The notes beneath the pieces were generated by a model. The model searched no databases. It had not been told where the DNA came from and worked only from the letters and a program-made list of their open reading frames with translations. A stretch of 64,000 nt of DNA from Thermoplasmata archaeon (GTDB lineage Archaea; Thermoplasmatota; Thermoplasmata; Thermoplasmatales; GCA-001856825): contig JBMFVV010000003.1 of assembly GCA_049965815.1 (NCBI GenBank), positions 19,846-83,845 on the forward strand, in the 5' to 3' direction. The position numbers and the translations under genes were made by a program. Shown here piece after piece: positions 16,383 to 34,013 of this stretch. Numbering within the stretch: position 1 is the first letter of the stretch; every line of letters starts with the position of its first letter.

Positions 16383-17351
16383 TTACTTATATCCATTCGC
16401 TGATATAATTATAGCATCTCCCCTGAAAGTGTTTTCAAACTCCGCTTCAACAATTGTATGTCCTAAATCTGTTCCAGTTCTCCTTACGAGCATAGGTTCA
16501 ATTTCCTTAAGACCATCACCTAACTTTTTCTTTATCACGATGTCTTTCCCTTTAACCACTTCACAGTTTACCTTCAAATAATTAAGATCAGAAGGAATGA
16601 AAATATTGATTGGTTTGTCCTCGTAGCTTAAACTATAATTAAGAAAGATATTGGCTTCTTCTGATTTGCGTAAAGCCCTACTTAGTGTTATTGAGATACC
16701 CGTCTGGTCTATATATGAATAAGTTATACAATCTTTATTCACAGTGATTTTCTTCGTTTCATCAAACGCAATCAGATCTATTTGATCTGGGGAATCGATA
16801 ACTCCAATAGGTAAGGAAACTGGAAAACTATTTATCAACTTAAGCCCAAGATTCTTGATATGAACGAATTGGGTCACTAATACACGATTTCCTGTAAAAT
16901 CAAACCCAATTGACATATTAGTTGTTGTTTCGCCTTCTAAATATTTGGTCTTAGTCTTCTTACTATATAATACACTATTTCCATCTTCTCTCTTACTTAT
17001 AAGATCAAGTCTTAGCATTTTGTTAATATTCCTATAAACTGTAGCTGTACTTACTGGCCGTCCATAAGACTTATCAAGCGATGATTTAATTTCTGTAAAA
17101 GTTAACTCCCTCCCGTCAGCCTTGACATCTAATACATTTTCAAGTGAATCGAAGATAGAAACCTTAGGTTCAATAACTCCTGCATCTTGCGTTGCAAGAC
17201 CTTCCTTTAGTCTGAAGTAATGTGTTACCCCATTGGAGTGAACAAACTTATAATATCTATAGGTCCTTCCTTTTGCTTTAGAAGTATAGTTGATTTTTCT
17301 TGCTTGCTTCCCACAAACTTTGCAAATTTCCTTGGTTACTTTCCTTCCCAT
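16383..17351 (-). CDS. Uncharacterised Zn-ribbon (CxxC...H..H) + winged-helix protein, paralog A
   Basis: 322 aa. N-terminus 'CKVCGKQARKINYTSKAKGRTYRYYKFVHSNGVTHY'; wH-like 'TATVYRNINKMLRLDLISKREDGNSVLYSK'; about 170 aa of unassigned beta-rich C-terminal region. It is a paralog of 17411..18370 and of the decayed copy at 29965..30569. Confidence 0.7.
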   Translation of the reverse strand: MGRKVTKEICKVCGKQARKINYTSKAKGRTYRYYKFVHSNGVTHYFRLKEGLATQDAGVIEPKVSIFDSLENVLDVKADGRELTFTEIKSSLDKSYGRPVSTATVYRNINKMLRLDLISKREDGNSVLYSKKTKTKYLEGETTTNMSIGFDFTGNRVLVTQFVHIKNLGLKLINSFPVSLPIGVIDSPDQIDLIAFDETKKITVNKDCITYSYIDQTGISITLSRALRKSEEANIFLNYSLSYEDKPINIFIPSDLNYLKVNCEVVKGKDIVIKKKLGDGLKEIEPMLVRRTGTDLGHTIVEAEFENTFRGDAIIISANGYK

Positions 17352-17410
17352 TAAAATCGCAATTAAATCTCTTGATATTCAAGTTTCCGCATTTATTGTT
17401 TAAAGTGTTC

Positions 17411-18370
17411 TTAGTTCTGTTTCCATTTCAATTGAAGGACTGAAAATGGTTCCACGTCTTTTAAACTTAGCCTACTAACTGACTTCCATTTTTCCGAGAA
17501 ATTTTCTCTAACCATTTGAGATAGATCTAGTGTTTCATTTCTAGAAGCGCTAGTTAGAGAGGCACTAAGTTTTGTCGGACTATTACCGGCAATTGAAAAT
17601 TCAAAATTGTCCATTCTAGTTGCCGACGAATATACAAATAACTGTTTTGGTTCTGGCCAATGATATTCTATACTGATATCCCTGGCTTCATTCGGTAGCA
17701 ACGGAGATGGTAACCTTAACAATACCCTTTTGTCATTTGCTGAATCCTCTATCGTCATCAATCTTATGTCCTTGGAATTAGAAGGATCTTTGGCCCTCAT
17801 TGATAAATCTTCAAAAGTTGCATCTACATCACCTACTGCTCTAAATGGAACATAAAACAATGGCCAAGAGTGGTCATTTCTTATTCTATAATAGAATAGA
17901 TGCCTGCTAAACATATTGTCATCATTTTCATCCTCAAGGGCGACCGTTATGCTCTCTATTATGTAGCTTAGTCTCTCCTTGGATACGGTGTTAACATAGA
18001 ATAGATCTCTCCCTTTCTTTTGTCTTTCTATGATTCCAACCTGTGCAAGTCTATTTAGGCTAACCTTTATTGAACTGAATCCAACTTTGGGATTGTCTTT
18101 AATGATTATATTCCTAATATCACTTATTCTGAAGGACCCTAATTTAAAATCCTGGGAGTTTATAGTTTCTATTAGTATCTTTTCCAGTTGCCCTTTTCGG
18201 AATTCTTTGGAATTTCTATCATTTTGGTTCGAATAATGAATATACCCTTGATGATGATAAAGAAAATAGTTATAGCGTTTTCCATATCTATTTAAAACCC
18301 ATTTGCTAGAAACTCTAGCTTTCTCTCCGCAGACAGGACAAACGCCCTCCCTTTGAGCAATAACCATCAC
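17411..18370 (-). CDS. Uncharacterised Zn-ribbon (CxxC...H..H) + winged-helix protein, paralog B
   Basis: 319 aa. 'CPVCGEKARVSSKWVLNRYGKRYNYFLYHHQGYIHY'; wH-like 'SIKVSLNRLAQVGIIERQKKGRDLFYVN'; same architecture as paralog A. The two genes are tandem and co-directional with a 59-bp spacer. Confidence 0.7.
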   Translation of the reverse strand: MMVIAQREGVCPVCGEKARVSSKWVLNRYGKRYNYFLYHHQGYIHYSNQNDRNSKEFRKGQLEKILIETINSQDFKLGSFRISDIRNIIIKDNPKVGFSSIKVSLNRLAQVGIIERQKKGRDLFYVNTVSKERLSYIIESITVALEDENDDNMFSRHLFYYRIRNDHSWPLFYVPFRAVGDVDATFEDLSMRAKDPSNSKDIRLMTIEDSANDKRVLLRLPSPLLPNEARDISIEYHWPEPKQLFVYSSATRMDNFEFSIAGNSPTKLSASLTSASRNETLDLSQMVRENFSEKWKSVSRLSLKDVEPFSVLQLKWKQN

Positions 18371-18428
18371 CCAACAATAATATATAGTATAAAAAAGTTA
18401 GAAAATATTCTCAGCGATCGAGAATTCT

Positions 18429-18602
18429 TCATCCATTGCCCATAAAGGCTCCACCCAGTGACTTCACGATTGCGAAGAACGTGAAAGCACTTAGCGAAAG
18501 CACCATTGCGATTATTTCAAACATTCTAATCCCCCGAACTTCTATAATTAACTGGTATTTCGATACTACTGTAAAGTTAGAAAGTTTTTCTAACTTTATC
18601 AT
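18429..18602 (-). CDS. Small membrane protein (57 aa, single C-terminal TM helix)
   Basis: ATG at 18602 lies 12 nt downstream of a strong 'GGAGGT' (reverse complement of 18615-18620). The C-terminus 'MFEIIAMVLSLSAFTFFAIVKSLGGAFMG' is a TM helix. It sits directly upstream of paralog B on the same strand. The ORF-track version (88 aa from 18695) has an implausible N-terminal extension. Confidence 0.4.
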   Translation of the reverse strand: MIKLEKLSNFTVVSKYQLIIEVRGIRMFEIIAMVLSLSAFTFFAIVKSLGGAFMGNG

Positions 18603-19061
18603 ACTATTGAATATACCTCCTTGATTATTAGGTTGAAAGAAAAATGAAAACTGAATATGTAAGTCCTGTGTGGGTGATGCGAAGTAACCTGCCACAGTAC
18701 TTCTTAGAATCGGTAAACAAGAAGAATAGATTGGAAGCTGGAGAAACTGGGCTATGGCAGAGAATAGGATTCATACTGAGGAACAAATCCCCCTCCTCAG
18801 ATAGGAAGACCATTTCCTACAATAGCCTGTATTCTCCGAACAAGTCTGATCTACATAATTTCCAGAATATAAAAGGGACAGTTCGTGAGAGTGGTTTCAG
18901 TTTTCTCAGTTTAGCCGATAATTTAATATTAAAATCTAAACCGATATTCATGATGCTCTATAGTGCATTGTCAGTAGTGAATTCCATTTCTATGAATGAT
19001 ATAAATTACAACCGTTTTTTTGAGCTGCCCGCTATTAAATGCGAAGGAGGTGACGATTAGA

Positions 19062-19493
19062 ATGACAACATCTCAAGAAATAGCTTCAAAAGAGAGATTT
19101 ATGAAAGAGTATAGGAGAGACTCAAACCCAGACACCAACGATTCAAGGCTTCTAGTATCGTTGCACAGCATAGAGTTCTCTGAGAAGACTAATGGCTACT
19201 TCGAAGTCGCCAGTGACATATACTTCTCGAATCTACTTTACCTCCTGTACATTAAAAAGGTAACTGCGGGTAACGACTTTGAAACTGCAAAGAACAAAGC
19301 TAAATCTGTGCTGATAGGCGAGTTAGAGAAGAAGAGGTATTCGATACTTACAAGAGCATCGTCCTTGAATGAAGACACGCTTGATTCTGTCATAACAGAA
19401 AGAAAGTTGGTCCTGATTGACAGAGCAATCTATCTACTTGAGACCGATGAAACCGATGGGGTATACTGCAACTACGATGTCCCAGATGATTGA
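19062..19493 (+). CDS. Uncharacterised ~140-aa partner protein P1 (paralog of 29512..29907)
   Basis: ATG 19062 is preceded by 'GGAGGTGA' (19046-19053). 'RLLVSLHSIEFSEKTNGYFEVASDIYFSNLLYLLYIKKVT..DFETAKNKAKSVLIGELEKK' aligns by eye with 'KLLISFHNIEFSNITKGYYRIAKNIFMSALPFLLYVKKVT..DFETVKGRAKLVLLDEMKHR' of the second copy. Confidence 0.65.
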   Translation: MTTSQEIASKERFMKEYRRDSNPDTNDSRLLVSLHSIEFSEKTNGYFEVASDIYFSNLLYLLYIKKVTAGNDFETAKNKAKSVLIGELEKKRYSILTRASSLNEDTLDSVITERKLVLIDRAIYLLETDETDGVYCNYDVPDD

Positions 19494-20763: not shown

Positions 20764-21360
20764 ATGAAAGCAAATGAAGTTTTGAATCTTTTGCAGATAT
20801 CCAGAAAGACGCTCCATGTCTATGCAAAAGATGGAAGAATCAGGTATATAGTAATGCCGAACAAGATGTACAATTACAACGAGGAGGATGTCTATAAGAT
20901 TCTCAATAAGGATGTGAAGAGAAAGACCGTTATCTATGCCAGGGTATCAACAGTAAAGCAGAAGAACGACTTACAAAACCAGGTTGAGCAGTTGAAGCAG
21001 TGGTGTTTCATGAATGGGTATACCATAAATGCCATATACGCTGATATTGCCCCCGGCATATCATTTGAAAAGAGAAAAGTGTTCTTCGAGATGCTTGATG
21101 AGATCATGAACCACAGGGTAGAGAAGGTGATCGTAACATACAAGGACAGGTTGAGCAGGGTCGCATTTGAATTATTTAAATACCTGTTTGCGAGATTCAG
21201 GACAGGAATAGTTGTTATTTCGGAAGTGGGCAATGCCAAACTTGATTCAGAAGAAATTTTCGAAGAAATTGTATCAATGCTTCACTGCTATTCAATGAAA
21301 ACGTATCCCAGGAGAAGAAACCATTCGATTGAGGTGGGATATGAAGACAACAAGAACTGA
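20764..21360 (+). CDS. tnpA: IS607-family serine recombinase transposase TnpA (MerR-like HTH + resolvase catalytic domain)
   Basis: N-terminal HTH 'ANEVLNLLQISRKTLHVYAKDGRIRY' followed by the resolvase motif 'VIYARVSTVKQKNDLQNQ' (catalytic Ser) and 'VIVTYKDRLSR'. Confidence 0.9.
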   Translation: MKANEVLNLLQISRKTLHVYAKDGRIRYIVMPNKMYNYNEEDVYKILNKDVKRKTVIYARVSTVKQKNDLQNQVEQLKQWCFMNGYTINAIYADIAPGISFEKRKVFFEMLDEIMNHRVEKVIVTYKDRLSRVAFELFKYLFARFRTGIVVISEVGNAKLDSEEIFEEIVSMLHCYSMKTYPRRRNHSIEVGYEDNKN

Positions 21361-22585
21361 ACAGGTCTATCTGAAGGAGAATGAAACAGTCTCACGGATG
21401 TGCCATCTTTCCAAGAACCTGTTCAATCAAGTCAATTACACACTCAGGAACCAGTTCCTGAACCATGAGAAACTGACTGAGTACAAGGCGCTTGCAAAAC
21501 AGCTTTCGAAACCTTCCGGCATAGAAGATCATGACAACTTTCAGAAGCTGCCGGCACAGACAGCGCAATGGGCAATTAAAAAGGTGGTACAGTCATGGAA
21601 CTCATTCTTCAAAGCCATGAGGGCATGGAAAAAGCATCCTGAAAAGTTCATGGGGATGCCTAAACCGCCTAAATACAAGAATAATGATGGCGAGTTCATG
21701 CTGATATTTACGAACCAGCAGTGCCATATCGATGATGGAATTTTGATTTTTCCAAAGATTATGAATATGGAGGTGGAGACCAGACTGAAGGATGTGGAAC
21801 TGAGAGAGGTTCGGATAATTCCACAGGGCGTGGGTTACACTGTGGAAATAGTATATGTGAAAGAGGCAACGGAAACGGGCACAACGGAACCGCGGAGAGT
21901 TATGGGTATTGATATCGGTGTGAGAAATCTTGTAACCATTGGAAACAACATCTCTGAACAGGGGATTGTTGTTAGGGCAGGATTGCTGAAATCCGTAAAT
22001 CAGTACTTCAACAAGGAATTTGCAAGACTGAGATCAATAAACGATCTGCAACACAATGAAAGAAAGCGGACAAAGAAGATGCAGAAACCCTTCACTGAGA
22101 GAAACAGGAAAGTAAAGGACATTATGCACAGGGTCTCGAAAGCAATCGTAGCTTACGCGAAGATCCGGGAGATAGATACGATCGTCATAGGCCACAACAA
22201 CGAATGGAAACAGTCAGTTAGCATGGGAAAGAGGAATAACCAGAATTTCGTCCAGCTCCCCTTTAACACGTTGATTCAGCAGATCAGGTACAAAGCCGAA
22301 GAGAAAGGGATTAATGTCATGATACAGGAGGAGAGCCACACAAGCAAGTGCAGTTTCCTTGACAATGAAGTGGTAGAACATCACGACACGTACATGGGAA
22401 AGAGAATAAGCAGAGGCACATTTCTATCTGCAGATGGAACACCAATACACGCCGATCTCAATGGATCGTACAACATAATAAGAAAAGCAATCCCTGAAGC
22501 TTTCGCCGACGGGATAGAGGGTATAGGGTTATACCCACGAAGTTTAAGCATCAGACAGATGATAACTTCCAAAGGTGGATGTTAA
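21329..22585 (+). CDS. tnpB: TnpB / IS605 OrfB-family RNA-guided nuclease-type protein
   Basis: Candidate RuvC triad: 'MGIDIGVRNL' (D), 'MIQEESHTSKCS' (E), 'IHADLNGSYNIIRK' (D). Overlaps tnpA by 32 nt. It belongs to the 'SKCSFLD' subgroup, which has no CxxC..CxxC zinc finger between E and D. Confidence 0.9.
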   Translation: MRWDMKTTRTEQVYLKENETVSRMCHLSKNLFNQVNYTLRNQFLNHEKLTEYKALAKQLSKPSGIEDHDNFQKLPAQTAQWAIKKVVQSWNSFFKAMRAWKKHPEKFMGMPKPPKYKNNDGEFMLIFTNQQCHIDDGILIFPKIMNMEVETRLKDVELREVRIIPQGVGYTVEIVYVKEATETGTTEPRRVMGIDIGVRNLVTIGNNISEQGIVVRAGLLKSVNQYFNKEFARLRSINDLQHNERKRTKKMQKPFTERNRKVKDIMHRVSKAIVAYAKIREIDTIVIGHNNEWKQSVSMGKRNNQNFVQLPFNTLIQQIRYKAEEKGINVMIQEESHTSKCSFLDNEVVEHHDTYMGKRISRGTFLSADGTPIHADLNGSYNIIRKAIPEAFADGIEGIGLYPRSLSIRQMITSKGGC

Positions 22586-22590
22586 AATGG

Positions 22591-23127
22591 TTAACAGAAA
22601 TCATAACCTAGACCATCAAATCCAATTATGACTGCCTCCACTGAATTTACGAAGGCATACGATGCGCTATCCGGTATCACGGTAACATTGCAGATTGCCC
22701 CATAATCTTTCTCCGCAACTTTATACTCATTACCTGGACTGGACTTTAGGAGCAGCAACTCTTCCAATCCAGTAGATTCAATAAATGTCTTTACAGCACT
22801 GCTATAACTTATTGCAACTGCACTCCTAATTCTAAGTTTCCTAACTTCGGATTTAAGATTGTCCACTGCCCTTTTCCTGTATTCGACCAATAACCTGCCA
22901 GTCTTCCTTAAATCTTCATCAGATTCAATCTTACTTGTCTTCAGAACCAGCCCAGTATTTGAAATGCTGGCCATACCTGGACGAATCTCATCCATGGACT
23001 TTACCAGCAATTTTAGGTCATTCAGATTAATGCCAGTTAAAAGTTCGGCTATCCTTTCGAAATACCAAGAAGAACCATGAATGTAATCACGCTTGAGTTC
23101 TGAAATTGTTCTCTGGAATTCTTCCAT
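22591..23127 (-). pseudogene. N-terminal fragment of the same eIF-2B/e2b2-family gene, truncated by the IS insertion
   Basis: 178-aa ORF ending '...IPDSASYAFVNSVEAVIIGFDGLGYDFC*'. 'DSA....V..V..VI.G.D' is the family segment just upstream of the NKIGT core. The last ~5 codons and the stop are read from the IS right end. Confidence 0.8.
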
Positions 23128-23268
23128 GTCAGGGTATTACTAGGACAGAATTAATCTCTTTCAGGTACGAGTATTTGGGTATGACCACCCGCATTTAATT
23201 AAAACTTAAGTTGGCTTCTTAAATAGTTCAATACTAAAACTTTTATTTATGAAATAACTATCGGGTAA

Positions 23269-25011
23269 ATGGAATACAAGTGGACAGTCCTGGTTAATAC
23301 TACCCTCGGTGGGCTGATGGCTTCAATTAACATGACGATTGTTCTAATTTCACTTCCAACAATCTTCCGTGGATTGAATATTGACCCCACAGCATCAGGG
23401 GAATTTATCATGCTTCTCTGGGTAATGATGGGCTACAGCATTGTCTTGGCCACACTTCTGGTAACTTTCGGTCGCCTCTCTGACATATATGGAAGAACCA
23501 GGCTATACACCCTCGGTTTTCTTATATTCACTGTTGGGTCTATCCTGCTTTCCATAATCCCTGATAACTCGGGCAACCAAGGCGCAGTGATGCTTATTGG
23601 ATTCAGGATGGTTCAGGCGGTGGGCGGAGGCCTGCTGATGGTCAACAGCACAGCACTGATAACGGATTCCTTTGGCCCAAGTGAGCGTGGAAGAGCTCTT
23701 GGAATCAACCAGATTTCATTCATCACAGGATCACTGATTGGCCTCATTGCAGGTGGATTGCTTGCTTCTGCCAACTGGCACCTGATATTTATTGTAAACA
23801 TTCCGTTTGCAGTAGCAGGGTCTTTATGGTCCATTTTCAGGCTGAAGCAAATAAAGAAGAGGGAAAAGGTTCCAATGGACATAGCAGGAAACATAGGTCT
23901 TGGAGGAGGTTTGGTGCTGGTGAGCCTGGGGTTCACTTATGCGCTCGTGCCATATGGAACTTCTGCAATGGGTTGGTACAATCCATGGGTGATTGCTTCA
24001 TTCATCGGTGGCTCAGTTCTTCTTGTTGCCTTTGTATTCATAGAGACAAGAGTCAAATATCCGCTCTTTGACCTAAGTCTGTTCAGAATTAGGGCGTTCA
24101 ATTACGGCAACATGGCCAACTTCATGTCTTCCCTTGGCAGGGGGGCAATCATGTTCCTTGTAATTATCTGGTTACAGGGGATTTACCTTCCTCTGCACGG
24201 TATTTCGTATTCCTCTACTCCGTTCTGGGCTGGGATATACATGATCCCCATGATGGCTGGATTTATTGCACTCGGACCAATTGGTGGAATATTGACTGAC
24301 AAATACGGTGCACGGATTTTCGCCACTGCAGGAATGATAATTGTTGCCATTTCTTTATATCTCCTGACTAGACTTCCTTATAATTTCAATGTTTGGCAGT
24401 TTGAAATAATACTGCTCCTGAATGGAATAGGAAGTGGCCTGTTTGCTGCCCCAAACACAACTGCCGTAATGAACTCGCTACCTGAACAGAGCAGGGGGGC
24501 CGGTAGTGGAATGAGAACGACCTTCAACAACATAGGACAGACAATCAGCATGGCCGTTTTCTTCTCCATAGCCATAACCATATTCTCAGACAAGCTTCCA
24601 ACCTCTCTCTATCAAACCTCTTTATCCATTGGGCTACCTCAAAAACTTGCGACTGCAATTTCCCAGATTCCACCGTCTGGCGCATTATTCGCTGCATTCT
24701 TGGGAATAAATCCAGCCGCTAGCTTCCCGTCATCAATGCTGAATTTGATACCTCCAGCTGCACTGAAATCGTTGATGTCCCTCACATTCTTCCCCAGTTC
24801 CATAGGTCCTTCTTTCATAATCGGTCTAAGGGATTCACTCTATGTGGCCATTGCCATGTCTATTGCGGGAGCCATTCTTTCTGCCCTCAGTGGAGGCAGA
24901 TATGTACATGGGGAGGGATATACCAGTGGGAAGGGTGCAATAAAGAATGAAACCAAGAAAACAGTTGAAACACCAAGCAACGACCCTTCACCCGGCCACG
25001 GGAGCAAGTGA
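23269..25011 (+). CDS. MFS transporter, DHA2 (14-TMS drug:H+ antiporter-like) with hydrophilic C-terminal tail
   Basis: 'FGRLSDIYGRTRLYTLGF' (motif A), 'GFRMVQAVGGGLLMVNSTALITDSF' (motif C-like) and about 14 hydrophobic segments. The stop overlaps the start of the MarR gene. Confidence 0.85.
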   Translation: MEYKWTVLVNTTLGGLMASINMTIVLISLPTIFRGLNIDPTASGEFIMLLWVMMGYSIVLATLLVTFGRLSDIYGRTRLYTLGFLIFTVGSILLSIIPDNSGNQGAVMLIGFRMVQAVGGGLLMVNSTALITDSFGPSERGRALGINQISFITGSLIGLIAGGLLASANWHLIFIVNIPFAVAGSLWSIFRLKQIKKREKVPMDIAGNIGLGGGLVLVSLGFTYALVPYGTSAMGWYNPWVIASFIGGSVLLVAFVFIETRVKYPLFDLSLFRIRAFNYGNMANFMSSLGRGAIMFLVIIWLQGIYLPLHGISYSSTPFWAGIYMIPMMAGFIALGPIGGILTDKYGARIFATAGMIIVAISLYLLTRLPYNFNVWQFEIILLLNGIGSGLFAAPNTTAVMNSLPEQSRGAGSGMRTTFNNIGQTISMAVFFSIAITIFSDKLPTSLYQTSLSIGLPQKLATAISQIPPSGALFAAFLGINPAASFPSSMLNLIPPAALKSLMSLTFFPSSIGPSFIIGLRDSLYVAIAMSIAGAILSALSGGRYVHGEGYTSGKGAIKNETKKTVETPSNDPSPGHGSK

Positions 25012-25445
25012 TGAAGAACGAATATGCTATGATATTGGACCAACTGACTGCGCTCAGAAAGCTCAGGAGAAAGATGCTGGACGAAATCAATGCCAACCTG
25101 AAGGATATGAACTCAAGTGAATTCTATGTACTGAACAAAATATGTGAGGGGTCCGGGGAACAAACGATGAGCGATTTATCTGCCTCCACGGGTCTGTCAA
25201 ACGCACTGATAACCGCTACGGTAGATAGTCTCGAAGGTCTAAAATTTGTAAAGAGGAAAAGGGGACCAGACAGGAGAAGCTACATTGTTGAGCTCACTGC
25301 AAATGGAAAGGAAAAATGTCTGGAAATGGAAAAAATAAAGAACAGAAGTATTGAGACGCTTTTCAAGAACATGACTAAAGAGGATCTTTCTGAACTGAAA
25401 GAAACATTGAAAAAACTTAATGAGCTCATGGACAAATATTCTTGA
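25008..25445 (+). CDS. MarR family transcriptional regulator
   Basis: 'MSDLSASTGLSNALITATVDSLEGLKFVKRKRGPDRRSYIVELTANGKE' is the MarR wHTH + wing signature. Translationally coupled (ATGA overlap) to the MFS gene. Confidence 0.85.
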   Translation: MMKNEYAMILDQLTALRKLRRKMLDEINANLKDMNSSEFYVLNKICEGSGEQTMSDLSASTGLSNALITATVDSLEGLKFVKRKRGPDRRSYIVELTANGKEKCLEMEKIKNRSIETLFKNMTKEDLSELKETLKKLNELMDKYS

Positions 25446-25476
25446 AGACAGGACTAAATATTTTGTCCATACTTCC

Positions 25477-26460
25477 TCAGTCCTGCAGAGCATCTATCAG
25501 AGACGGAAGCGATTCTTCATACAAATATTCTATTCCAAAATGGCCTACATCATACTCCTTGTATTCGTGTCTTATCTTGTTCCTGGCCAGAAGTTTGCTC
25601 ATCCCCTTCATGCCTACGTTGATTGAAAATTCATCCTTCCTCCCAACCTGGAGTATAATCTTTTGGTCCCTTATGTTTTCAAGCCTTTTCTCAACGTTCC
25701 TGAGCGGATCAAATTCCAACCATTTCTTCCAGATCTCTTCCCTAAATATGTGGTACTTGGTGTCGAATGGAAGGTCAAAGCCTAACCCCGGATTACCGTT
25801 TGGGGAATAGAAGGCTGCCATTGCAATTGTATTCATCGTGTTGAGTTCAGAACCGTCTGGACGTGGCTTCTCGTTTAACTGTTTCATAAACTTCTGAACA
25901 GTTGTCCCTTCCAGCTTAGAAATTGCATCAGGGAAATCCTTGAGATAACAGTACTCGAAACCTGAATCTCCAGAAACGTCCACAAAACCACCAAATATTT
26001 CAGGATGCCTAGAAGCCAGATTGTATGAACCAAAACCGCCTGACGATTTACCAAACAGACCTATTTTTCTCTTTCCGTATTTGTTATTTATGAAACTTAC
26101 TATGTCCTTAACAATGAAATCCTCATAATTACCTACTGCAGTAGAATTTACATACTGATTGCCATAGTAAGATGTCATAGAATCCGGAAGAAATATCAGA
26201 AATGAATTAGTTTTATTCTCCGAGATCCTTTCCAGTGCACGGAAGAAATCGTGGCTGCTATAAGATCTATTTAAAAAACTTATGGAACTCCCAAAGAATC
26301 CTGCCAATCCTATAAGTGCAGGGGTAGTTTCCTTGACGTTCCTTTCAAGCACAATTACTTCTCTTTCAACTGGGTCACCAACACGATTCCCCCTGAGACT
26401 TCTACCATTTACCATGAATTTCTTTACTTCAAAAGGCATTTTTCGGTTCAATAGTGGCAT
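25477..26460 (-). CDS. Alpha/beta hydrolase, putative esterase (esterase D / enterochelin esterase-like)
   Basis: Nucleophile elbow 'IGLFGKSSGGFGS' (G-x-S-x-G). 'LIFLPDSMTSYYGNQYVNS' resembles the PF00756-type 'putative esterase' family as I recall it. Confidence 0.65.
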   Translation of the reverse strand: MPLLNRKMPFEVKKFMVNGRSLRGNRVGDPVEREVIVLERNVKETTPALIGLAGFFGSSISFLNRSYSSHDFFRALERISENKTNSFLIFLPDSMTSYYGNQYVNSTAVGNYEDFIVKDIVSFINNKYGKRKIGLFGKSSGGFGSYNLASRHPEIFGGFVDVSGDSGFEYCYLKDFPDAISKLEGTTVQKFMKQLNEKPRPDGSELNTMNTIAMAAFYSPNGNPGLGFDLPFDTKYHIFREEIWKKWLEFDPLRNVEKRLENIRDQKIILQVGRKDEFSINVGMKGMSKLLARNKIRHEYKEYDVGHFGIEYLYEESLPSLIDALQD

Positions 26461-26528
26461 AATGGAGGATAAAAGTATCGTGAATATCCTTTATGGTTTG
26501 CGACTCGAGGAAGATTGCAATTTCTATT

Positions 26529-27809
26529 TCAGATTATGAGCGTCTCCTGGTCAACCCTTCTACTGGAAATACCCAGATCAGCCACTCTTATTTCAGCGTC
26601 TCCGTATAATTTGGCCTTTTCCTTTCCGGAGTAGAGCGAGGACGCGAGTCTACCAGCTGCATCTGCCTTCATGATACCGCTACCACTGCTTCCACTTATT
26701 ATCGATAGATTCATATTCCTTTCAAGAACATAGGTACCATCCATGTTGTTCATCGAGTAATACCCGGCCCAGCTTGACATTATCCTTGAATCAGAAAAGG
26801 AAGGGACGTATTCCCTCAGCACCGGGTATAGATTGTTTGAATAATAGTCTGCTTCAGCGGTTGGATTCTCCTCAAGCGAGAACCCCCTTCCTATTCCCTC
26901 GCTGTATGACACCCAGAAAGTTTTCGACTTTGGATCAGGTCTGAGGTCGATCGATGGGCTGGGAAGAATCGTGAAAGGGAATATGTCCTCTTCGCCAGTC
27001 ACCCTTCTAGTTATCATTTTCAAAATGCCCTCCCCCTGTACCTGGAAGACCTGAACCTTCTTTGGTCGGGTGAAGGAATCTATTCCAAGAGGACTGACAA
27101 GATCACTCGTCCATACGTCCGTTGCAAGAAGGAAATGATCAGCAAATATTTCACCTGATTTGGTTGTAACTGATTCAATGAATTTGTCCTGCCAGATAAA
27201 TGGCTCACCAGGAAAATTCAGCTTTGAACGAGGAGAGAGATTTAATCTTGTAACCAGAGTGTTGTACCTGAATTCTACCCCCATCGTCTCAAGTTCCTTG
27301 ACATAAAATGAGGCCAGCAGGTCTGGTTCCATTATGCCACAGTTCTCTCCAACGAAACCACCATCTATATTTTTTAAACCCATTATTTTAGCAGCCTCAG
27401 GATCAGGGTTTGTCCTTATGCCAAGATCAGAAATTTCTTCCCTGCTTATGACTTTTGATTTCACCCTCTTCAAAAGGCTCTTTACTGCTGAGGAGTTTAA
27501 ATTTCTTTCATCCATAAGAAACAGGTAGCCGTTGAAATGCATCCCCAAGTTGAATCCACCTTGCTGAATAGATTTATAAAATGAGATCGACGAAGATGCT
27601 AGTTTATAATTTGTGTCTGATGTAAAAACGTCTCTGAACGCCGCATCGCTCTTTGCGGTATTCCCCTGTGCATATGTGCCCCATTTATCCACAATGCAGA
27701 TGCTCAAGTCAGGATTGTCTTTCTTTATGTGATAGGCTGAGGATAGACCAGTCACACCAGCTCCAACGATCAGCAGATCGTACTTTTGCATGTGCACCAC
27801 GCATTGCAT
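26529..27809 (-). CDS. FAD-dependent oxidoreductase (DAO / glycine-sarcosine oxidase beta-like)
   Basis: N-terminal dinucleotide fold 'YDLLIVGAGVTGLSSAY' and 'ICIVDKWG'. The ~420-aa length is typical of the DAO family. An alternative ATG is at 27791. Confidence 0.75.
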   Translation of the reverse strand: MQCVVHMQKYDLLIVGAGVTGLSSAYHIKKDNPDLSICIVDKWGTYAQGNTAKSDAAFRDVFTSDTNYKLASSSISFYKSIQQGGFNLGMHFNGYLFLMDERNLNSSAVKSLLKRVKSKVISREEISDLGIRTNPDPEAAKIMGLKNIDGGFVGENCGIMEPDLLASFYVKELETMGVEFRYNTLVTRLNLSPRSKLNFPGEPFIWQDKFIESVTTKSGEIFADHFLLATDVWTSDLVSPLGIDSFTRPKKVQVFQVQGEGILKMITRRVTGEEDIFPFTILPSPSIDLRPDPKSKTFWVSYSEGIGRGFSLEENPTAEADYYSNNLYPVLREYVPSFSDSRIMSSWAGYYSMNNMDGTYVLERNMNLSIISGSSGSGIMKADAAGRLASSLYSGKEKAKLYGDAEIRVADLGISSRRVDQETLII

Positions 27810-27864
27810 GCGATTATTTAAGGAATCAAGAAGAGAACTGATCCAAAGAGCAACAGCGACTCAA

Positions 27865-28770
27865 TCAGATCAATTTCATTTCTTTCAGCAGGTATCTTGC
27901 ACAGGCAATATCTTCCAGACCGATCCCCATAGTCTTGAAAATTGTCTTCCTTAACCCTCTGAACTTTTGCCTTTCACCCACCACTTCCTTGAATTCAACT
28001 GGCTTACCGCCGTCGTTGACGAATTCAGAGATCTCTGAAGACTCCCTCATCGCCTGCTCAAGGTGCTCAACAATTACAAGATTTGCATCTTTTATCACAT
28101 CCTCGGAGACCTCCCTTCTTGACATGATGTTAGAACCCGCTATGTTAAGGTGATACCTGTCCAGAAATGAAAGATCCTCTATTACAGGCTCATAGGATGA
28201 TGTTATGCAAGTAATCACGTCTGCACCATTTAGGGCCTGCCTCAAGTCGCCATAGTCTTTGATATCTCTATCAAATTTGTGGGACATTCTATCTGCGAAA
28301 CCTTTACTGTGAGATGCTGTCCTGGAATACACCCTGATTTCATTTGGGTCAGAAATGCTCAGAATCCCCTCAAGCTGGGTTTCTGCCTGAAAACCAGACC
28401 CTATCAATGTGAATATGGAACAATCATCGTGGAGTAGGGAGGTTGCGAGAGCAGTTACGGCACCCGTTCTAATTTGCCCGAGTTTTTCCGCCTCAACGAT
28501 TGCCAGGAGTTCCGTTGAATCAGTATCAAACAGCAGAACAACAAATTTTGCACCGTTCTTTGTCCCAATGTATGATTTGAGGCCACTTATGTGATACTTG
28601 TTCATGAACGCAGGCATGGTGCTTAAAACAGACGAACTTGAATAAGTTCTTTGACGTGGGTCCGATCCTGCATTCCCCTTGAAATATTCCTCAAATGCTT
28701 CTTTCATCAATTCAACTGCGGTTTGCATATCTAAATATTCTGAAACTTCCTTGTCCGTAATGTAGTACAT
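27865..28770 (-). CDS. Ornithine cyclodeaminase / mu-crystallin family protein (archaeal alanine dehydrogenase-like)
   Basis: 301 aa. 'LGQIRTGAVTALATSLL' and the Rossmann segment 'FTLIGSGFQAETQL' are characteristic of the OCD/mu-crystallin family. Confidence 0.75.
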   Translation of the reverse strand: MYYITDKEVSEYLDMQTAVELMKEAFEEYFKGNAGSDPRQRTYSSSSVLSTMPAFMNKYHISGLKSYIGTKNGAKFVVLLFDTDSTELLAIVEAEKLGQIRTGAVTALATSLLHDDCSIFTLIGSGFQAETQLEGILSISDPNEIRVYSRTASHSKGFADRMSHKFDRDIKDYGDLRQALNGADVITCITSSYEPVIEDLSFLDRYHLNIAGSNIMSRREVSEDVIKDANLVIVEHLEQAMRESSEISEFVNDGGKPVEFKEVVGERQKFRGLRKTIFKTMGIGLEDIACARYLLKEMKLI

Positions 28771-28839
28771 CTATTTTCTGAGATGTATAAACCTAAAAAA
28801 CTTTCTCAATGTTTTCCCGGATGAAACGTACCGCCGTAT

Positions 28840-29394
28840 CTAACTGAGTGCCGCAGTGATTGACCCTGTCGTGCCACTATAGTTTATGACTACCTTGAAA
28901 TCAGACAGATTTACAGGGCTGCCTTCCGTGTGGAACTGTATATATATGAATGCCCCCGATTCAATAGATGTTGCTCCATTGACGGGGCTAGCTCCATTAG
29001 AAGTCCATGTACTTCCACTGCTTGTAAAAGTGTTCATATAGAGAACCGAACCATCTGGATTGGTTATGGTGGCATTCACTACTGTCCAGCCGACACCTGT
29101 GGAACTGTCATTTAGTATTTGAAGGTGGAAATCAGACGGGTTCTTTAGAACGGTCGGAGTAGCTAATGTTAAAATCAAAGTGACAGAGTTTGAAGAGGAT
29201 GATTCTTCGGATAAACCTCCTACTAGTGGTCCCGGTCCGGGACTATAGTAAGAGACCAGTAGATATACAGCTGCTGCTAGTACAACAGTTACGGCAACCA
29301 TTAGAATCGTAGCGATAACAGGAGATACTGCCTCGTCCTTTTCAATATGAAGCGTCCAAATCTTCCTTCGAGTTCTCCTTACGACTTCTTTCAT
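28840..29394 (-). CDS. Archaeal type IV pilin-like protein (class III signal peptide, DUF1628-type N-terminus)
   Basis: '...EKDEAVSPVIATILMVAVTVVLAAAVYLLV' is the archaeal prepilin N-terminal signature. A Ser/Thr/Asn-rich beta domain with N-x-S/T sequons follows. Confidence 0.8.
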   Translation of the reverse strand: MKEVVRRTRRKIWTLHIEKDEAVSPVIATILMVAVTVVLAAAVYLLVSYYSPGPGPLVGGLSEESSSSNSVTLILTLATPTVLKNPSDFHLQILNDSSTGVGWTVVNATITNPDGSVLYMNTFTSSGSTWTSNGASPVNGATSIESGAFIYIQFHTEGSPVNLSDFKVVINYSGTTGSITAALS

Positions 29395-29511
29395 CTCTTC
29401 TCCTCTGGATATCCAAGAGTAAGAAGAAATGCTTAAAACAGATATATATTTTGAGGTTTATTAACTCACTGACGTGGGTGGATTTTGCGCCCAAAGTTAA
29501 ATGTGACGTAA

Positions 29512-29907
29512 TCACAATTCCTCAAGAATTGATATCGCTTGATCAAGCAACTTAATCTTAACACTAAACCGGTCATTCTTGTCAGCTGGGTCGAATTCTG
29601 ATAGGTTACTAAGAAGCGTTAGACTTCTCTTCCTGTGTTTCATTTCATCCAGCAAGACCAACTTTGCCCTTCCCTTTACTGTTTCGAAGTCGCAATTAGG
29701 AGGATTGGTGGTGACCTTCTTTACGTAGAGCAGAAATGGCAGTGCAGACATGAAAATGTTCTTTGCTATCCTGTAATAGCCCTTGGTTATGTTTGAAAAT
29801 TCTATATTATGGAATGAAATCAAAAGTTTAAGTTCCCCGTTAACTACCCGGTATTTCTTGTTCACACAGATGACTTCGTAATGTCTTGATTCACTATCCG
29901 AAACCAT
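29512..29907 (-). CDS. Uncharacterised ~130-aa partner protein P2 (paralog of 19062..19493)
   Basis: See the alignment with P1. ATG 29907 is preceded by 'GGAGGGGA'. It is divergent from the decayed Zn-ribbon/wH-family gene, with a 57-bp spacer. Confidence 0.65.
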   Translation of the reverse strand: MVSDSESRHYEVICVNKKYRVVNGELKLLISFHNIEFSNITKGYYRIAKNIFMSALPFLLYVKKVTTNPPNCDFETVKGRAKLVLLDEMKHRKRSLTLLSNLSEFDPADKNDRFSVKIKLLDQAISILEEL

Positions 29908-29964
29908 TTCATATTCCCCTCCGAAGGTAATTTCTCTGGAAAAGTTAAATACACATCGAATTTC

Positions 29965-30569
29965 TTGAATAAAACTAGCGGGAGGAACATCACCTACTAC
30001 AGAAAAAAAGACCCATCTCAGGTGATAAAGGAGATAAAGATCAACGAGACGTCGCTCAATTGGTTTCCTTCAGGTAGGAAGGCTTCTGTTAATCTTTTTC
30101 TCTATCTGAGAAATGATACAGATAGGCCGCTAACATCCATACCCATTTCACTGCCATCAGGTGGGTCAGACTCACCGGAAGACCTCAACTTGAACGCTTA
30201 CGACCAATATGGAAGTATAGATAAAAACCGCATTAATACCACTTACACCTATCCGGGCCGGATATTGATCTCAGTTGGTTCTAACAAAGTTCTAAAACCT
30301 ATTGAAAAAACTTCGTGTTCCTGCAGGGGAATATTGATATAAACGATGATTAGATGAAATTTTCACTCCCCATCAACATAGATTCATTCAAGATGAGCTG
30401 TATTTCTGACCAAACAAGGGAGTTCTACATAAAGAGACTGTTACTGGACGGAATAAAAGAGAGCAATCCAGACCCAGTAAAGAGAGGTACACTGGAAGGG
30501 GGAAATTCCTATACGGAAGTGTAATTCGATAAACTGGTGAAAGGAGAAACGATAGTAGTATCGTGGTAG
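29965..30569 (+). pseudogene. Decayed third copy of the Zn-ribbon/wH family (N-terminally truncated, frameshifted, two premature stops)
   Basis: 'ITYYRKK...PLTSIPISLPSGGSDSPEDLNLNAYDQ' aligns with paralog A 'VLYSKK...LINSFPVSLPIGVIDSPDQIDLIAFDE'. Homology continues in another frame after the A6 run at 30305-30310: 'NFVFLQGNIDINDD*MKFSLPINIDSFKMSC...YTEV*FDKLVKGETIVVSW' versus A 'ANIFLNYSLSYEDKPINIFIPSD..LKVNC...TIVEAEFENTFRGDAIIIS'. In-frame stops are at 30351-30353 and 30522-30524. The Zn-ribbon and wH parts are absent. Confidence 0.75.
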
Positions 30570-30703
30570 GTGAAATTTAGAGTATTGTAACATCATCCAT
30601 TCCCAAGGAAATTATACAAAGCCTTTTGAATTGTGTACCAAATAGTTAATATAAGTTTAAGAGGTTTATCTGCAGTGATGCATGATCAAAAGGTGAAGAT
30701 CGA

Positions 30704-30997
30704 TTGATTGCGTGGAATAGCCTGCTAGATTTCGTACTCAGTTTCGTAGTAGGTTTATTGTTCGGTCTCTCCGTGAAGAAAGGTGCAATGGCGTTCCTCC
30801 TTGCGATCATCGGGTTTATCATAGCGGGATATGTAGGTCTAACATTCATCCCTAAAATATCTCTGGCGTATGAAATAAACAAATTCATAGGCTTATTATC
30901 TGCATACATAAAGGACTTCCATATTGGAGCACTTTCTGTATCCCTTTCAATAGTACTCTTTCTTGTCGGGCTAGCAATAGGACTCTGGAAAGGTTGA
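30704..30997 (+). CDS. Small integral membrane protein (3 predicted TM helices)
   Basis: 97 aa. 'LDFVLSFVVGLLFGLSV', 'AMAFLLAIIGFIIAGYVGLTFI' and 'LSVSLSIVLFLVGLAIGLW' are hydrophobic helices. The antisense ORF 30646..30909 looks like a shadow. Confidence 0.5.
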   Translation: MIAWNSLLDFVLSFVVGLLFGLSVKKGAMAFLLAIIGFIIAGYVGLTFIPKISLAYEINKFIGLLSAYIKDFHIGALSVSLSIVLFLVGLAIGLWKG

Positions 30998-31115
30998 GCT
31001 TCAAAATATGCTTTCCTCTTTTTTTGGCACTTTATAAATGCTATCTTAAGCCATCATATTCGATGATTAGCTACAAGAACCCATAAAGATTCATAAGGCA
31101 GAAAAATATTCATTT

Positions 31116-31877
31116 TTGTTGAAAGAAGTAAGAAGGGAGGAAGCGGTATCAGAGGTCGTGGGAACAATCCTTGTACTTGCGATTACCATTGTACTTTTTG
31201 CCGCTGTTTTTTTCTATATTCAGCAATTTCCACTAGCAAATCCATCAGAGCAGGTAACCGTTTATCCCGAAATATCTTACAACCCCCACTCACAAATCTT
31301 GTATGAGAACATTACGTTGAAAGCAGGAAGCATCCTTCCGAGGAGCAACACATATTTCATTGTTATTATAAACAATAAAGAGTTTACTACCCCTACTACT
31401 AATATTAAGCTCGGAAGCCCTTACAATAATTCGTCAATATACCTGGAACCCGGAGATGTTTTGATGTGGAACAGTTCACTGACAGGTGTGACAATCCCTG
31501 AAAATTCCAGCGTCACCTCTTTCCTGTTCTATAAACCATCTAGCCAGATACTATGGCAGTCTAAGTATGTCGTCTCTAGCCAGTTGTCAATATCTTCTTT
31601 CTATGTCACCCCCTTCCCTGTTAAACCAGATACTTCATTTGAAATCGTGCTGGACGTTGAAACCTATGACCCTAATGGTACCACTGCATACTTGAATCTT
31701 TCATCTCTGTATGGATCAAACTTCAATGTGTCCATGCACCTTTATAGCACATCAGTTAGCACAGTAACCTTCTATTTCTATGGAAGTTCCCCTGATGTTG
31801 TTCCAGCTAATTCAACAGCATATGTTACTGTGAATGCAAATGGAATGATCCAGAATTCTGAACTCATTCTAAGCTGA
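31116..31877 (+). CDS. Archaeal type IV pilin-like protein (class III signal peptide, DUF1628-type N-terminus)
   Basis: 'MLKEVRREEAVSEVVGTILVLAITIVLFAAVFFYI' followed by a sequon-rich (NIT, NSS, NSS, NGT, NLS, NVS, NST) beta domain. Confidence 0.8.
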   Translation: MLKEVRREEAVSEVVGTILVLAITIVLFAAVFFYIQQFPLANPSEQVTVYPEISYNPHSQILYENITLKAGSILPRSNTYFIVIINNKEFTTPTTNIKLGSPYNNSSIYLEPGDVLMWNSSLTGVTIPENSSVTSFLFYKPSSQILWQSKYVVSSQLSISSFYVTPFPVKPDTSFEIVLDVETYDPNGTTAYLNLSSLYGSNFNVSMHLYSTSVSTVTFYFYGSSPDVVPANSTAYVTVNANGMIQNSELILS

Positions 31878-32028
31878 CATCCTGAAAAAAATATCCGTGA
31901 TAAAATGGAAATACTTTGATGATGGGTTTCTTTCATTTCCAGTGACAATGAATAAGAGCCATGAAATGTTATACTACAGTATCATAACAACTGACAAACA
32001 TCTATATAATCCGATGGAATTATAAACA

Positions 32029-32619
32029 GTGATTATTGAGCTTGAGGCTCTTGGAATCATCGGAACTTTATATGTACTTGCTGTGTTTGTTCTATCTATC
32101 CTGAACTTCTCAAACATCATGAGAAGACAGTTCCTGAAGGCATCAGCCCTCTTCTTCATATTCAGCTTGATTTCGATGATATTTGTGGTTTTACTTGGCT
32201 ATTCCAGCATCTTCTTCCTTCCCCTAGTTACCACGGAATTCCTTCTTATGATAACTCTGTTCTACAGTTACTTGAAATCTAATGTCTATTTCCTCTCTGC
32301 GATGCTCTTTCCCCTAGCTACTGGGTCGGGATTTATGACAAGGGTGATACCATACTTTGAAGACATAGTTGTCATCCTGGCAATCTACTTTTCCCTTTAC
32401 ATAACCGGTTCAATCCTTCAAGCCAAATCCCAGGAGAGTAAGGGAAGCACAGTGGTAATGGGATCGTTCATCCTGATGGATGCATCACTCATTTTGGAAG
32501 CTTTCTATATTTTGAAGTTCAACAGCTCGTTCATGGAGATTGGAGTAACTCTCTTCGTACTGTCAATAATTCTATTCCTGCTACCTTTCCTGGTGGGGGT
32601 GTTTTCTAAGAATGCCTAA
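32029..32619 (+). CDS. Polytopic membrane protein, unknown function
   Basis: 196 aa with about six hydrophobic helices. No prepilin-peptidase GxGD motif is visible. Overlaps the downstream wHTH gene by 8 nt. Confidence 0.55.
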   Translation: MIIELEALGIIGTLYVLAVFVLSILNFSNIMRRQFLKASALFFIFSLISMIFVVLLGYSSIFFLPLVTTEFLLMITLFYSYLKSNVYFLSAMLFPLATGSGFMTRVIPYFEDIVVILAIYFSLYITGSILQAKSQESKGSTVVMGSFILMDASLILEAFYILKFNSSFMEIGVTLFVLSIILFLLPFLVGVFSKNA

Positions 32620-32911
32620 TGGGGGGCCTCAACGGATGAGGAAGAACAGAAACGAGGTGCAGATAATATTCGAGTTCATGCAAGAGATAAAAGACGGTAA
32701 CTCTCAAACCTCATCCCTGTTGAGAAAGGTAAATATCCCCTTCAATAAGTATCAGGAGCTTGTACAGCAGCTGAAAGACAGAGGAATGCTGTCTGTAACG
32801 CCAGATGGGAGTAAGGTGGCACTGGAACTCACAGACAAGGGTAAGGAGTTCCTGGAACAGTATAAAAAGTTCAGTAAGATGATGGAGAAAAGCTATGGAC
32901 TGACTCTTTAA
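32612..32911 (+). CDS. Small winged-helix DNA-binding protein (archaeal HTH_45-like)
   Basis: 99 aa. 'VQIIFEFMQEIKDGNSQTSSLLRKVNIPFNKYQELVQQLKDRGMLSVTPDGSKVALELTDKGKEFLEQY' has the layout of small archaeal wH regulators. Confidence 0.6.
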   Translation: MPNGGPQRMRKNRNEVQIIFEFMQEIKDGNSQTSSLLRKVNIPFNKYQELVQQLKDRGMLSVTPDGSKVALELTDKGKEFLEQYKKFSKMMEKSYGLTL

Positions 32912-32976
32912 ATTGTGACATTCTTTAAAGGGCCATTGAACCATTTGAAAAGCAAAAGTATTTCCTGACTTTAGTC

Positions 32977-33297
32977 ATGTACTGGACGATTATTATGGTG
33001 AGCGAAGGGAGAATTGTGGAAAACGCGGCAGGTCCTGTTGTAACTGCTATGGTTCATCTTAAGGCTGATACCGCAAAGATTGAAACAATTAGCGCAAGTC
33101 TTTCGGAACTCAATTTTGTTGAAGACATATACCTGACTACGGGGAACTGGGATATGATCTTAAAAGTGAGATTCCCGAACGTGAATCAGATGAAAAACTT
33201 CCTGGTCAAGGATTTGAGAAATGTTGATGGAATAAAGGATTCTTACACATCCATGGTCATTAATATATTCAAAGATAGGGGGGTTAAGTTCCAGTGA
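32977..33297 (+). CDS. Stand-alone Lrp/AsnC-type ligand-binding (RAM) domain protein
   Basis: 'VTAMVHLKADTAKIETISASLSELNFVEDIYLTTGNWDMILKVRFPNVNQMKNFLVKDLRNVDGIKDSYTSMV' is the AsnC_trans_reg beta-alpha-beta-beta-alpha-beta pattern without an HTH. The start is uncertain (ATG 32977, 32995 or 33049). Confidence 0.7.
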   Translation: MYWTIIMVSEGRIVENAAGPVVTAMVHLKADTAKIETISASLSELNFVEDIYLTTGNWDMILKVRFPNVNQMKNFLVKDLRNVDGIKDSYTSMVINIFKDRGVKFQ

Positions 33298-33585
33298 GTG
33301 ATAATTATGGACGAAATGACACAGATTTTGGTTGACACAACAAAGATGCTAGACGACCTGATTTCAGACTATTCCGTGCCTAGGAACATAAGGAAGAACA
33401 TTCAGGCAGCAAAGATGAAACTTTCCCAGAACAAGGGAACGCTTGACCTGAGGGCTGCAACATCCATCTCTACCCTGGATGAAATAGTGAACGATCCGAA
33501 CACGCCAGGACATGCAAGAACACTGATCTATACTATAATGGGGAAATTGGAGATACTCCAGAAGAAAGCGTCAACACTTCAGTGA
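33298..33585 (+). CDS. UPF0147 family protein
   Basis: 'DYSVPRNIRKNIQAAKMKL...ISTLDEIVNDPNTPGHARTLIYTIMGKLE' matches the conserved archaeal UPF0147 pattern (D..VPRNIR....A...L....R.A.AI..LDEI.NDPN.P.H.RT.IW) as recalled. ATG at 33307 is an alternative start. Confidence 0.7.
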   Translation: MIIMDEMTQILVDTTKMLDDLISDYSVPRNIRKNIQAAKMKLSQNKGTLDLRAATSISTLDEIVNDPNTPGHARTLIYTIMGKLEILQKKASTLQ

Positions 33586-34013
33586 TCCATCTTCCATTTC
33601 TTCTTTGCCACTTTTCTAACGTGGTCTATAACCTGTTCCAGCGGTGTTCCTGGCCCGAAATTCCCGGTAATTCCCATTTTTTCCAGTTTCTTCCTGTCTG
33701 CTGGGGGTATGATCCCTCCGCCCACAACTTGGATATCGTCCGCCCCCAGTTTCTTTAGCCATTTTTTCACTTCAGGGAATGCGCTCAGGTGCGCGCTGTT
33801 GTGAAGGCTTAAAGCCACGACGTCGACGTCCTCGTCCACTGCTATCCTGGCAACTGTTTCTGGAGTTGGCAGTAGTCCGGCATAAAGAACTTCCATACCT
33901 GCATCCCTGAACGCCTTTGCCAGAATAAGAACACCCCTGTCGTGGCCGTCCAGTGCAGGCTTTGCAACAAGTATCCTGATCCTCCTGTTCATATTATCGT
34001 TGGTTCCTTCCAT
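33579..34013 (-). CDS. Methylmalonyl-CoA mutase, small (C-terminal, cobalamin-binding) subunit
   Basis: 'RILVAKPALDGHDRGVLILAKAFRDAGMEVLYAG' contains the DxHxxG B12-binding motif. 144 aa. Confidence 0.9.
   Translation of the reverse strand: MEGTNDNMNRRIRILVAKPALDGHDRGVLILAKAFRDAGMEVLYAGLLPTPETVARIAVDEDVDVVALSLHNSAHLSAFPEVKKWLKKLGADDIQVVGGGIIPPADRKKLEKMGITGNFGPGTPLEQVIDHVRKVAKKKWKMDH

Follow-up and report, generated by a model that had tools for sequence, protein, structure and literature searches.

Decay of a large gene beside an intact small partner in the second copy of a duplicated module of a Thermoplasmatales-type archaeon

The DNA considered here is a window of 64,000 nucleotides (C3:19846-83845, on contig JBMFVV010000003.1) from an uncultured, acidophilic Thermoplasmata archaeon whose 1.6 Mb metagenome-assembled genome (MAG; G000 in the following) comprises 154 contigs at 92% completeness. 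Between positions 29512 and 30569, the window carries a small intact gene, P2, and, on the opposite strand, the damaged remnant of a large gene, A2. Both belong to a multi-gene module that occurs twice in the window: module 1 (genes P1, A1, B1 and X1) is intact, while module 2 (P2, A2, B2 and X2) has lost most of its parts; P designates the family of the small partner. The locus was compared with its counterparts in the genus by tblastn searches of all window genes against the loci of 13 genomes, G000 among them, in which module 2 is assembled.

In a complete module, two transcription units diverge from a region with a 21-bp palindrome, one comprising a membrane-peptide gene, B and A, the other X and P. 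P and the B-A pair lie on opposite strands, 650-730 bp apart, and in intact modules the divergent promoters are situated between them. The gene order is common to the genus and reads ABC permease-PadR-EF-like-[A1 B1 pep X1 P1]-cinA-MFS-MarR-esterase-DAO-OCD-pilin-[P2 X2 pep B2 A2]-orf97-pilin. Module 2 is an inverted copy of module 1, and the two are separated by a conserved 10 kb block that extends from cinA to the pilin-like gene. In maximum-likelihood trees, A1 and A2 form distinct clades, as do B1 and B2 (100/100 support for each split), so that the duplication of the module is placed before the sampled radiation.

The large-gene remnant at 29955-30569 is a true pseudogene, which can be aligned codon by codon with the intact A2 genes of the sister species G010 and G012. 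It shares 70-80% amino-acid identity with them, as well as the flanking genes pilin184 and orf97; for the 5' piece, the identity is 70-75%. Residues 116-233 of paralogue A match positions 29959-30312 in frame 1 (tblastn against the window, E 8e-10), and a second match, in another frame, pairs residues 233-317 with 30309-30563 and includes a TAG and a TAA (whole-genome HMMER, E 1.1e-6). With A2 of G010 as the HMMER query, the E-values are 9.7e-56 for the 5' piece and 7e-42 for the 3' piece with its internal stops. In the maximum-likelihood tree, the fragment groups with A2 of G010 and G012; A2 and A1 proteins are about 28% identical. A decaying recent copy of A1 was considered and rejected, the remnant being an orthologue of the anciently diverged A2 (A1/A2 clades at 100/100).

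Three kinds of lesion are present in the remnant. Relative to the 933-nt A2 of G010 and G012, the first ~315 nt (~105 codons) are gone, and with them the zinc ribbon and most of the winged helix; what is left is the end of the wing and the β-sandwich, so that every DNA-binding part is lost. The reading frame then changes at a run of six A residues, and two nonsense codons follow, TAG at 30351-30353 (TCA in the relatives) and TAA at 30522-30524 (GAG in the relatives). Since either nonsense codon requires two base changes with respect to the relatives, and since a frame repaired at the A run still meets the TAG 14 codons on, a homopolymer miscall would not rescue the gene, and a sequencing error is unlikely.

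An earlier, sequence-only reading of the locus had noted a large gene without zinc ribbon and winged helix, a frame change at the A run, two in-frame stops and a C-terminal similarity to paralogue A, as well as an intact P2 close to half identical to P1 and preceded by a strong ribosome-binding site. All of this is borne out by formal alignment, down to the coordinates. Its description of a second module copy in which the large gene decays and the small one is intact also stands. The losses go further than had been noticed, including B2, the peptide gene, X2 and the operator region.

These further losses are apparent from comparison with intact relatives, in which four elements lie between P2 and A2. 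They are X2 (125-138 codons, poorly conserved, with its stop abutting the P2 start), the divergent promoter region, a membrane-peptide gene of 33 codons (e.g. MIEIFTLAIGLALSVYFTLINPIIEGGVAAGGG; another example is L025:16597-16698) and B2 (318 codons). In G000, all four are gone, except that the last bases of X2, which contain the P2 ribosome-binding site, remain. The flanks are 75-76% identical to G010 at the DNA level, and 211 bp in G000 (29744-29954) take the place of 1,779 bp in G010. As read from these alignments, a net loss of about 1.6-2 kb is the main lesion. Homology to the related locus L039 ends just upstream of the P2 Shine-Dalgarno motif, and homology to A2 of G010 starts at ~29955; the short junction in between gives p of about 0.02-0.9 against shuffled sequences when compared with the intergenic regions of G010 and G012, with the best alignment falling at the unrelated 3' end of P2. 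The features of both modules are collected in Table 1.

Table 1. Features of module 2 and of the intact reference copy, module 1 (positions in the window)
Feature	Position	Strand	Remarks
P2	29512..29907	minus	intact 131-codon open reading frame (ORF), small P family
Shine-Dalgarno-like motif GGAGGGGA	29915..29922	minus	7 nt upstream of P2 ATG; read from sequence
Deletion junction	29923..29954		about 30 nt; joins last X2/Shine-Dalgarno bases to A2 codon ~106
Pseudo-A2, 5' piece	29955..30309	plus	codons ~106-223 of intact 310-codon A2; end of winged helix and first half of β-sandwich
A6 run	30305..30310	plus	-1 frameshift: GAAAAGAAC in G010 and G012, GAAAA-AAC in G000
Pseudo-A2, 3' piece	30309..30569	plus	shifted frame; terminal stop 30567-30569 at ancestral position
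Module 1	16383..19493		intact reference copy
A1	16383-17351	minus	module 1
B1	17411-18370	minus	module 1
Palindrome half-site	18396-18404		module 1
Membrane-peptide gene	18429-18524	minus	module 1; 31 aa
21-bp palindrome AGTTAGAA-N5-TTCTAACT	18575-18595		between divergent units of module 1
X1	18644-19060	plus	module 1
P1	19062-19493	plus	module 1

The age of the pseudogene can be judged from the amount of change it has accumulated. Between G000 and its nearest relatives synonymous divergence (dS) is saturated (about 1-2), so that only ratios of non-synonymous divergence (dN) were used there. The ratio dN(G000-G010)/dN(G010-G012) is 1.9 for pseudo-A2 and 1.8-2.9 for intact genes; against G010, pseudo-A2 has a dN of 0.122 and a dN/dS (ω) of 0.08-0.18. 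Of the 22 positions at which all 12 intact A2 orthologues agree, two are changed, one of them being a nonsense codon. Because there is no excess of dN and so few invariant positions have changed, the pseudogene is young, and the event can be called recent when set against the divergence from the sister species.

The P2 gene itself shows no damage. BLASTP aligns it with P1 at 48/106 identities (45%, E 2e-22), and two orthologous proteins of 131 aa are 52-57% identical to it, with the start position common to all three. It retains 11/11 invariant and 8/8 near-invariant columns of the P family. Its ribosome-binding site has a counterpart in the relatives that sits within the 3' end of ORF X2, and the motif GGAGGGGA aligns with GGAGGCGA upstream of the P2 orthologue in L039. 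Most starts of P1 and P2 have a GGAGG-type motif ahead of them, none being obvious at P2 of G005, G007, G008 and G017. No conserved TATA box is found at P starts, each of which abuts the stop codon of X, and for this reason X and P are probably co-transcribed from the divergent promoter. If so, neither the native promoter nor the native operator of P2 would be left in G000, and the sole candidate for a replacement promoter element is a TATTTAA motif inside the junction (minus strand), 37 nt upstream of the P2 start codon.

Intactness of this kind is weak evidence for function and not statistically significant, because the chance that a neutral 131-codon ORF stays open at the pseudogene's density of 3 lesions/202 codons is about 0.14, and the chance that 0/19 conserved sites change at the pseudogene's own rate is about 0.16. 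P genes are under weak constraint even where they are intact: in the unsaturated pair G007-G008 (dS about 0.15), from which ω was taken, the values are 0.39 for P1 and 0.48 for P2, and 0.13 for A2 and 0.09 for B2. The AlphaFold2 (AF2) model of P2, with a predicted local distance difference test score (pLDDT) of 81, shows a small sheet of four strands and, after it, a long helical hairpin. A fold search of this model against PDB and BFVD returned nothing with E<0.1 and merely generic helical-hairpin matches, all with E>0.8; the P alignment used as a profile against PDB sequences gave nothing with E<0.2, and P has no match in Pfam, NCBIfam, PADLOC or PHROGs. P may modulate the module or be its output. 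P2 of G000 is most likely a young orphan that is still undecayed, or else a weakly selected second copy of P.

This picture of one retained and one eroding partner is altered considerably when the whole genus is taken into account. A2 and B2 are uninterrupted, at 309-318 codons, in 12 genus genomes. P2 is also intact in G005, G007, G008 and G017, as it is in two metagenomic contigs that were included beyond the genus genomes; it contains stops or truncations in G010, G012, G002 and G006, and is undetectable in a gap of 0.8-1.1 kb in G018, G014, G009 and G013. Only in G000 is A2 disabled and B2 absent with P2 intact. Module 2 is thus complete in four of the 13 genomes, has lost P2 with both large genes intact in eight, and has lost the large genes in one. 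The tree implies a minimum of four independent losses of P2 (G002 versus G007/G008, G006 versus G005, G010 and G012 versus G000, and G018). P1 is always kept, and no genome lacks module 1. G010 and G012, the sister species, are the mirror image of G000, having lost P2 and kept B2 and A2. The asymmetric decay in G000 had initially been taken to indicate which component is dispensable; the comparison of orthologous loci, in which 8/13 genomes lost P2 instead, overturns that conclusion.

Further tandem B-A pairs, up to three per genome, are found off the syntenic locus (G007:C18, G007:C1, G002:C22, G010:C23, G009:C140 and G004:C18; loci L047-L053). No P-family gene lies within 4-5 kb of them, and they are accompanied by single palindrome half-sites only; in G010:C23, there is a TGA within the B copy. 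Because these extra pairs do without a P gene nearby, the B-A pair is the conserved core of the module and P a fast-evolving accessory that is repeatedly lost.

A and B align with each other over their full length, and the invariant residues C10, C13, H38 and H44 form a Cys2His2 zinc ribbon. The AF2 model of A1 (pLDDT 84.6) comprises this zinc ribbon (residues 6-47), a winged helix (66-131) and a β-sandwich (142-318); the sandwich has ~190 residues in both A and B. The middle domain contains helices at 66-77, 85-96 and 102-114 and strands at 118-123 and 126-131 (pLDDT mostly 70-90), i.e. the three-helix bundle and β-hairpin wing of winged-helix regulators. At the sequence level, all matches of A and B to curated winged-helix families are below threshold (Penicillinase_R 20.3 bits at a cut-off of 22.6; FUR 16.7 at 23.1), as are weak matches to AbiEi-type winged helices (E 0.008-0.09). 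A and B are putative DNA-binding regulators.

Their candidate target is the palindrome between the divergent units, which has an 8-N5-8 layout and in its perfect form in module 1 reads AGTTAGAAAGTTTTTCTAACT. Among 18 intergenic regions of modules 1 and 2 surveyed in the genus, the half-site AGTTAGAA occurs in 18/18 and the full palindrome, flanked by TATA-like elements, in 16/18; an extra half-site just upstream of B is present in 14/18. In module 2 of G010 and G012, the right arm has the one-base variant TTCTAATT. The exact 21-mer is found once in the G000 genome, in module 1, and no copy occurs near module 2 (28846-33612) of this genome even when one mismatch is allowed. The palindrome is a putative operator that would be recognised by A and B and control both units.

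Two small components of the module deserve separate mention. The peptide gene is located directly upstream of B in both modules; its 31-33 codons specify a single hydrophobic helix and a Gly-rich tail (e.g. MFEIIAMVLSLSAFTFFAIVKSLGGAFMGNG). ORF X (125-145 codons) is open before P in both modules, for example at 18644-19060 (+), L039:177-593 and L031:3686-4099. Its identity between species is 47%, where the genes next to it reach 74-90%, and only short patches are shared in each version (LSLADK..KSKP in X1, TRRGQKRG in X2). X may be a protein or a transcribed leader.

Taken together, the stretch is best explained as what is left of module 2, one of two inverted copies that arose by an ancient duplication, after a net deletion and then point lesions in the course of ordinary recent gene decay; the probability of this explanation is put at roughly 0.85. 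With the net loss went the promoter region and its palindrome, X2, B2 and the peptide gene, together with the third of A2 that encodes the DNA-binding part. The tail of A2 that survived then gained the -1 frameshift and the two nonsense codons, and P2 is left as an intact ORF with a ribosome-binding site, deprived of its native promoter and operator and of its cognate large genes.

This account has several weak points. The term 'recent' is a relative one in view of the saturated dS, and three disabling lesions in 202 codons are somewhat more than expected where dN is not in excess. The source of the ~30-nt junction could not be traced, and there may have been one deletion event or two. Both the deletion and the length of the A run are known from a single metagenome assembly: when metagenome contigs were scanned for exact matches to the 42 nt spanning the deletion junction, none was found and hence no independent contig, and a P2-based search for related loci in metagenome contigs gave 94 pattern matches, of which 0 were confirmed. 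In addition, the binding of DNA by A and B is a prediction, and any interaction of either with P would be hypothetical. All these points weigh against the proposed history, or against the functional picture attached to it.

In principle, P2 could have been kept by selection after its partners were lost, acting in trans with A1 and B1, or alone as a specialised P paralogue. A full-length ORF with a conserved start and Shine-Dalgarno motif beside a pseudogene with three lesions is what this would predict, and the retention of all 19 invariant or near-invariant family positions, the confident structural model, the not fully neutral evolution of P2 in close relatives (ω 0.48) and the possible TATA box in the junction are all in keeping with it. 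Against this, chance alone could account for an undamaged P2 at the probabilities given above, and pseudo-A2 likewise keeps conserved residues; the native promoter, operator and X2 are gone, P2 was lost repeatedly elsewhere in the genus, where P1 was not, and additional B-A pairs have no P gene in their vicinity. Selective retention is therefore a tentative proposition, and it is equally doubtful that P2 is still expressed and useful in G000. A little more doubtful again is the idea that P proteins are independent of their cognate A and B, for instance as diffusible modulators that cross-talk with module 1, and that P2 survived for this reason. If P2 was indeed retained in this way, G000 and the pair G010/G012 would constitute a natural reciprocal knock-out pair, (P1+P2, A1B1) versus (P1, A1B1+A2B2). 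Such a pair would be usable to dissect an undescribed archaeal module consisting of a zinc-ribbon/winged-helix/β-sandwich heterodimer, a membrane peptide, P and one palindromic operator.

The sequence-only reading had likened P2 to an orphaned antitoxin or immunity gene; a related version would have P2 as a toxin that was made harmless by the loss of its promoter. G000 has indeed kept one partner and lost the other, A and B have a predicted DNA-binding domain as many antitoxins do, together with the weak AbiEi-type matches, and deletion of the promoter and operator region is what would be expected if unregulated P2 were harmful. The analogy does not withstand comparison with the rest of the genus, and is very improbable. 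P and A/B are encoded on divergent units and are not co-transcribed, P has no toxin or antitoxin domain by any of the database or fold searches, and the β-sandwich of A and B is not of a toxin-like fold. Profiles of toxins, antitoxins and defence proteins gave nothing for P and, for A and B, no more than a faint likeness to winged helices. Moreover, A2 and B2 that have no P2 beside them are under strong purifying selection (ω about 0.1), and the locus is syntenic, vertically inherited and not mobile. Losses have occurred in both orders, in eight genomes of P2 only and in one of A2/B2, which argues against an addictive toxin-antitoxin relationship, unless module 1 cross-protects. A collapsed or chimeric join in the MAG, combined with a homopolymer miscall, might be suspected in view of the 154 contigs, the 92% completeness and the location of the frameshift in an A6 run. 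Such an artefact is hardly credible, however: both flanks are collinear with every relative, the two modules have nothing in common at the DNA level by which an assembler could be misled, a repaired A run still meets the TAG, and the nonsense codons, with two substitutions each, are placed where a truncated, unselected gene would collect them. A mobile element or provirus was also considered and rejected, there being no PHROG matches or mobility genes in the module, which occupies the same syntenic place throughout the genus.

Comparison with known systems places these observations in context. Reciprocal loss of duplicates between sister lineages offers a parallel, with G000 having lost B2 and A2 and G010/G012 having lost P2, and with decay proceeding from deletion to frameshift and nonsense codons. 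Here, however, parts of a multi-gene module are lost, and module 1 is kept everywhere, with no sign of a complementary partitioning of function. Orphan antitoxins and solitary immunity genes resemble P2 in being small intact genes that adjoin an eroded neighbour; they differ in that the present genes are divergent and devoid of such domains, in that 8/13 genomes show the opposite pattern, and in that the P2 promoter region was lost in the same event. Winged-helix repressors of the BlaI/MecI/CopY, PadR and Fur types share with A and B the modelled three helices and β wing and a perfect 8-N5-8 palindrome between divergent promoters, and the A/B middle domain gives weak matches to Penicillinase_R, FUR and PadR structures (E 7e-4 to 0.2). 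In contrast to these repressors, A and B stay below family cut-offs, add a Cys2His2 zinc ribbon and a large β-sandwich, and form a tandem pair of paralogues whose binding to the operator is presumptive. The C-terminal domain of A1 resembles the N-terminal β-sandwich of M1 aminopeptidases and the luminal domain of ribophorin I/Ost1 (Foldseek E 3.5e-7 to 1e-5, probability 1.0, 215-267 columns). With template modelling (TM) scores of 0.3-0.4 and 7-16% identity, and with neither catalytic domain nor membrane anchor in A1, this likeness is at the level of the fold only.

The surroundings of the modules have some features of their own. Module 2 is bracketed by pilin-like genes at 28840-29394 (-) and 31116-31877 (+), which have N-termini resembling class III signal peptides, and by a gene of 97 codons for a membrane protein (30704-30997); all relatives have these genes in synteny. 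Between the modules, at 20764-22585, G000 alone has an IS607-type element (serine recombinase and TnpB), a separate insertion; in all relatives cinA is directly followed by orf178 or MFS. In G012 (L028), tblastn matches to the DAO-type oxidoreductase and to cinA are each split into two pieces that overlap and differ in frame (7689-8967 and 13232-13997), which suggests frameshifts, due either to pseudogenes or to assembly errors. The G+C content is 0.37-0.39 at 16001-20000 and 30001-32000, against 0.42-0.44 in the surroundings. A gene for tRNA-Arg(GCG) at 16279-16354 lies 28 nt from the 3' end of A1 and was the only hit in an Rfam scan of 15500-31500 for intergenic RNA. A bacterial promoter scan returned no sigma-70-like sites, its model not being applicable to archaea.

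The A, B and P proteins constitute an uncharacterised, lineage-restricted regulator family. Public homologues are labelled Thermoplasmatales or Thermoplasmatota archaeon, and among 1.84 billion representative proteins the P family accounts for just 21 clusters at 50% identity; a literature search combining Thermoplasmatales, zinc ribbon and winged helix returned a single, unrelated paper on ESCRT. On its own, the stretch analysed here is a young pseudogene of little weight, and its value is comparative. Module 2 has been dismantled differently in different species of an uncultured Thermoplasmatales-type genus, and P and the B-A pair are not bound by an addictive relationship, which corrects the earlier inference on dispensability. 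Natural loss variants and a candidate operator are now at hand for the study of this regulator family.

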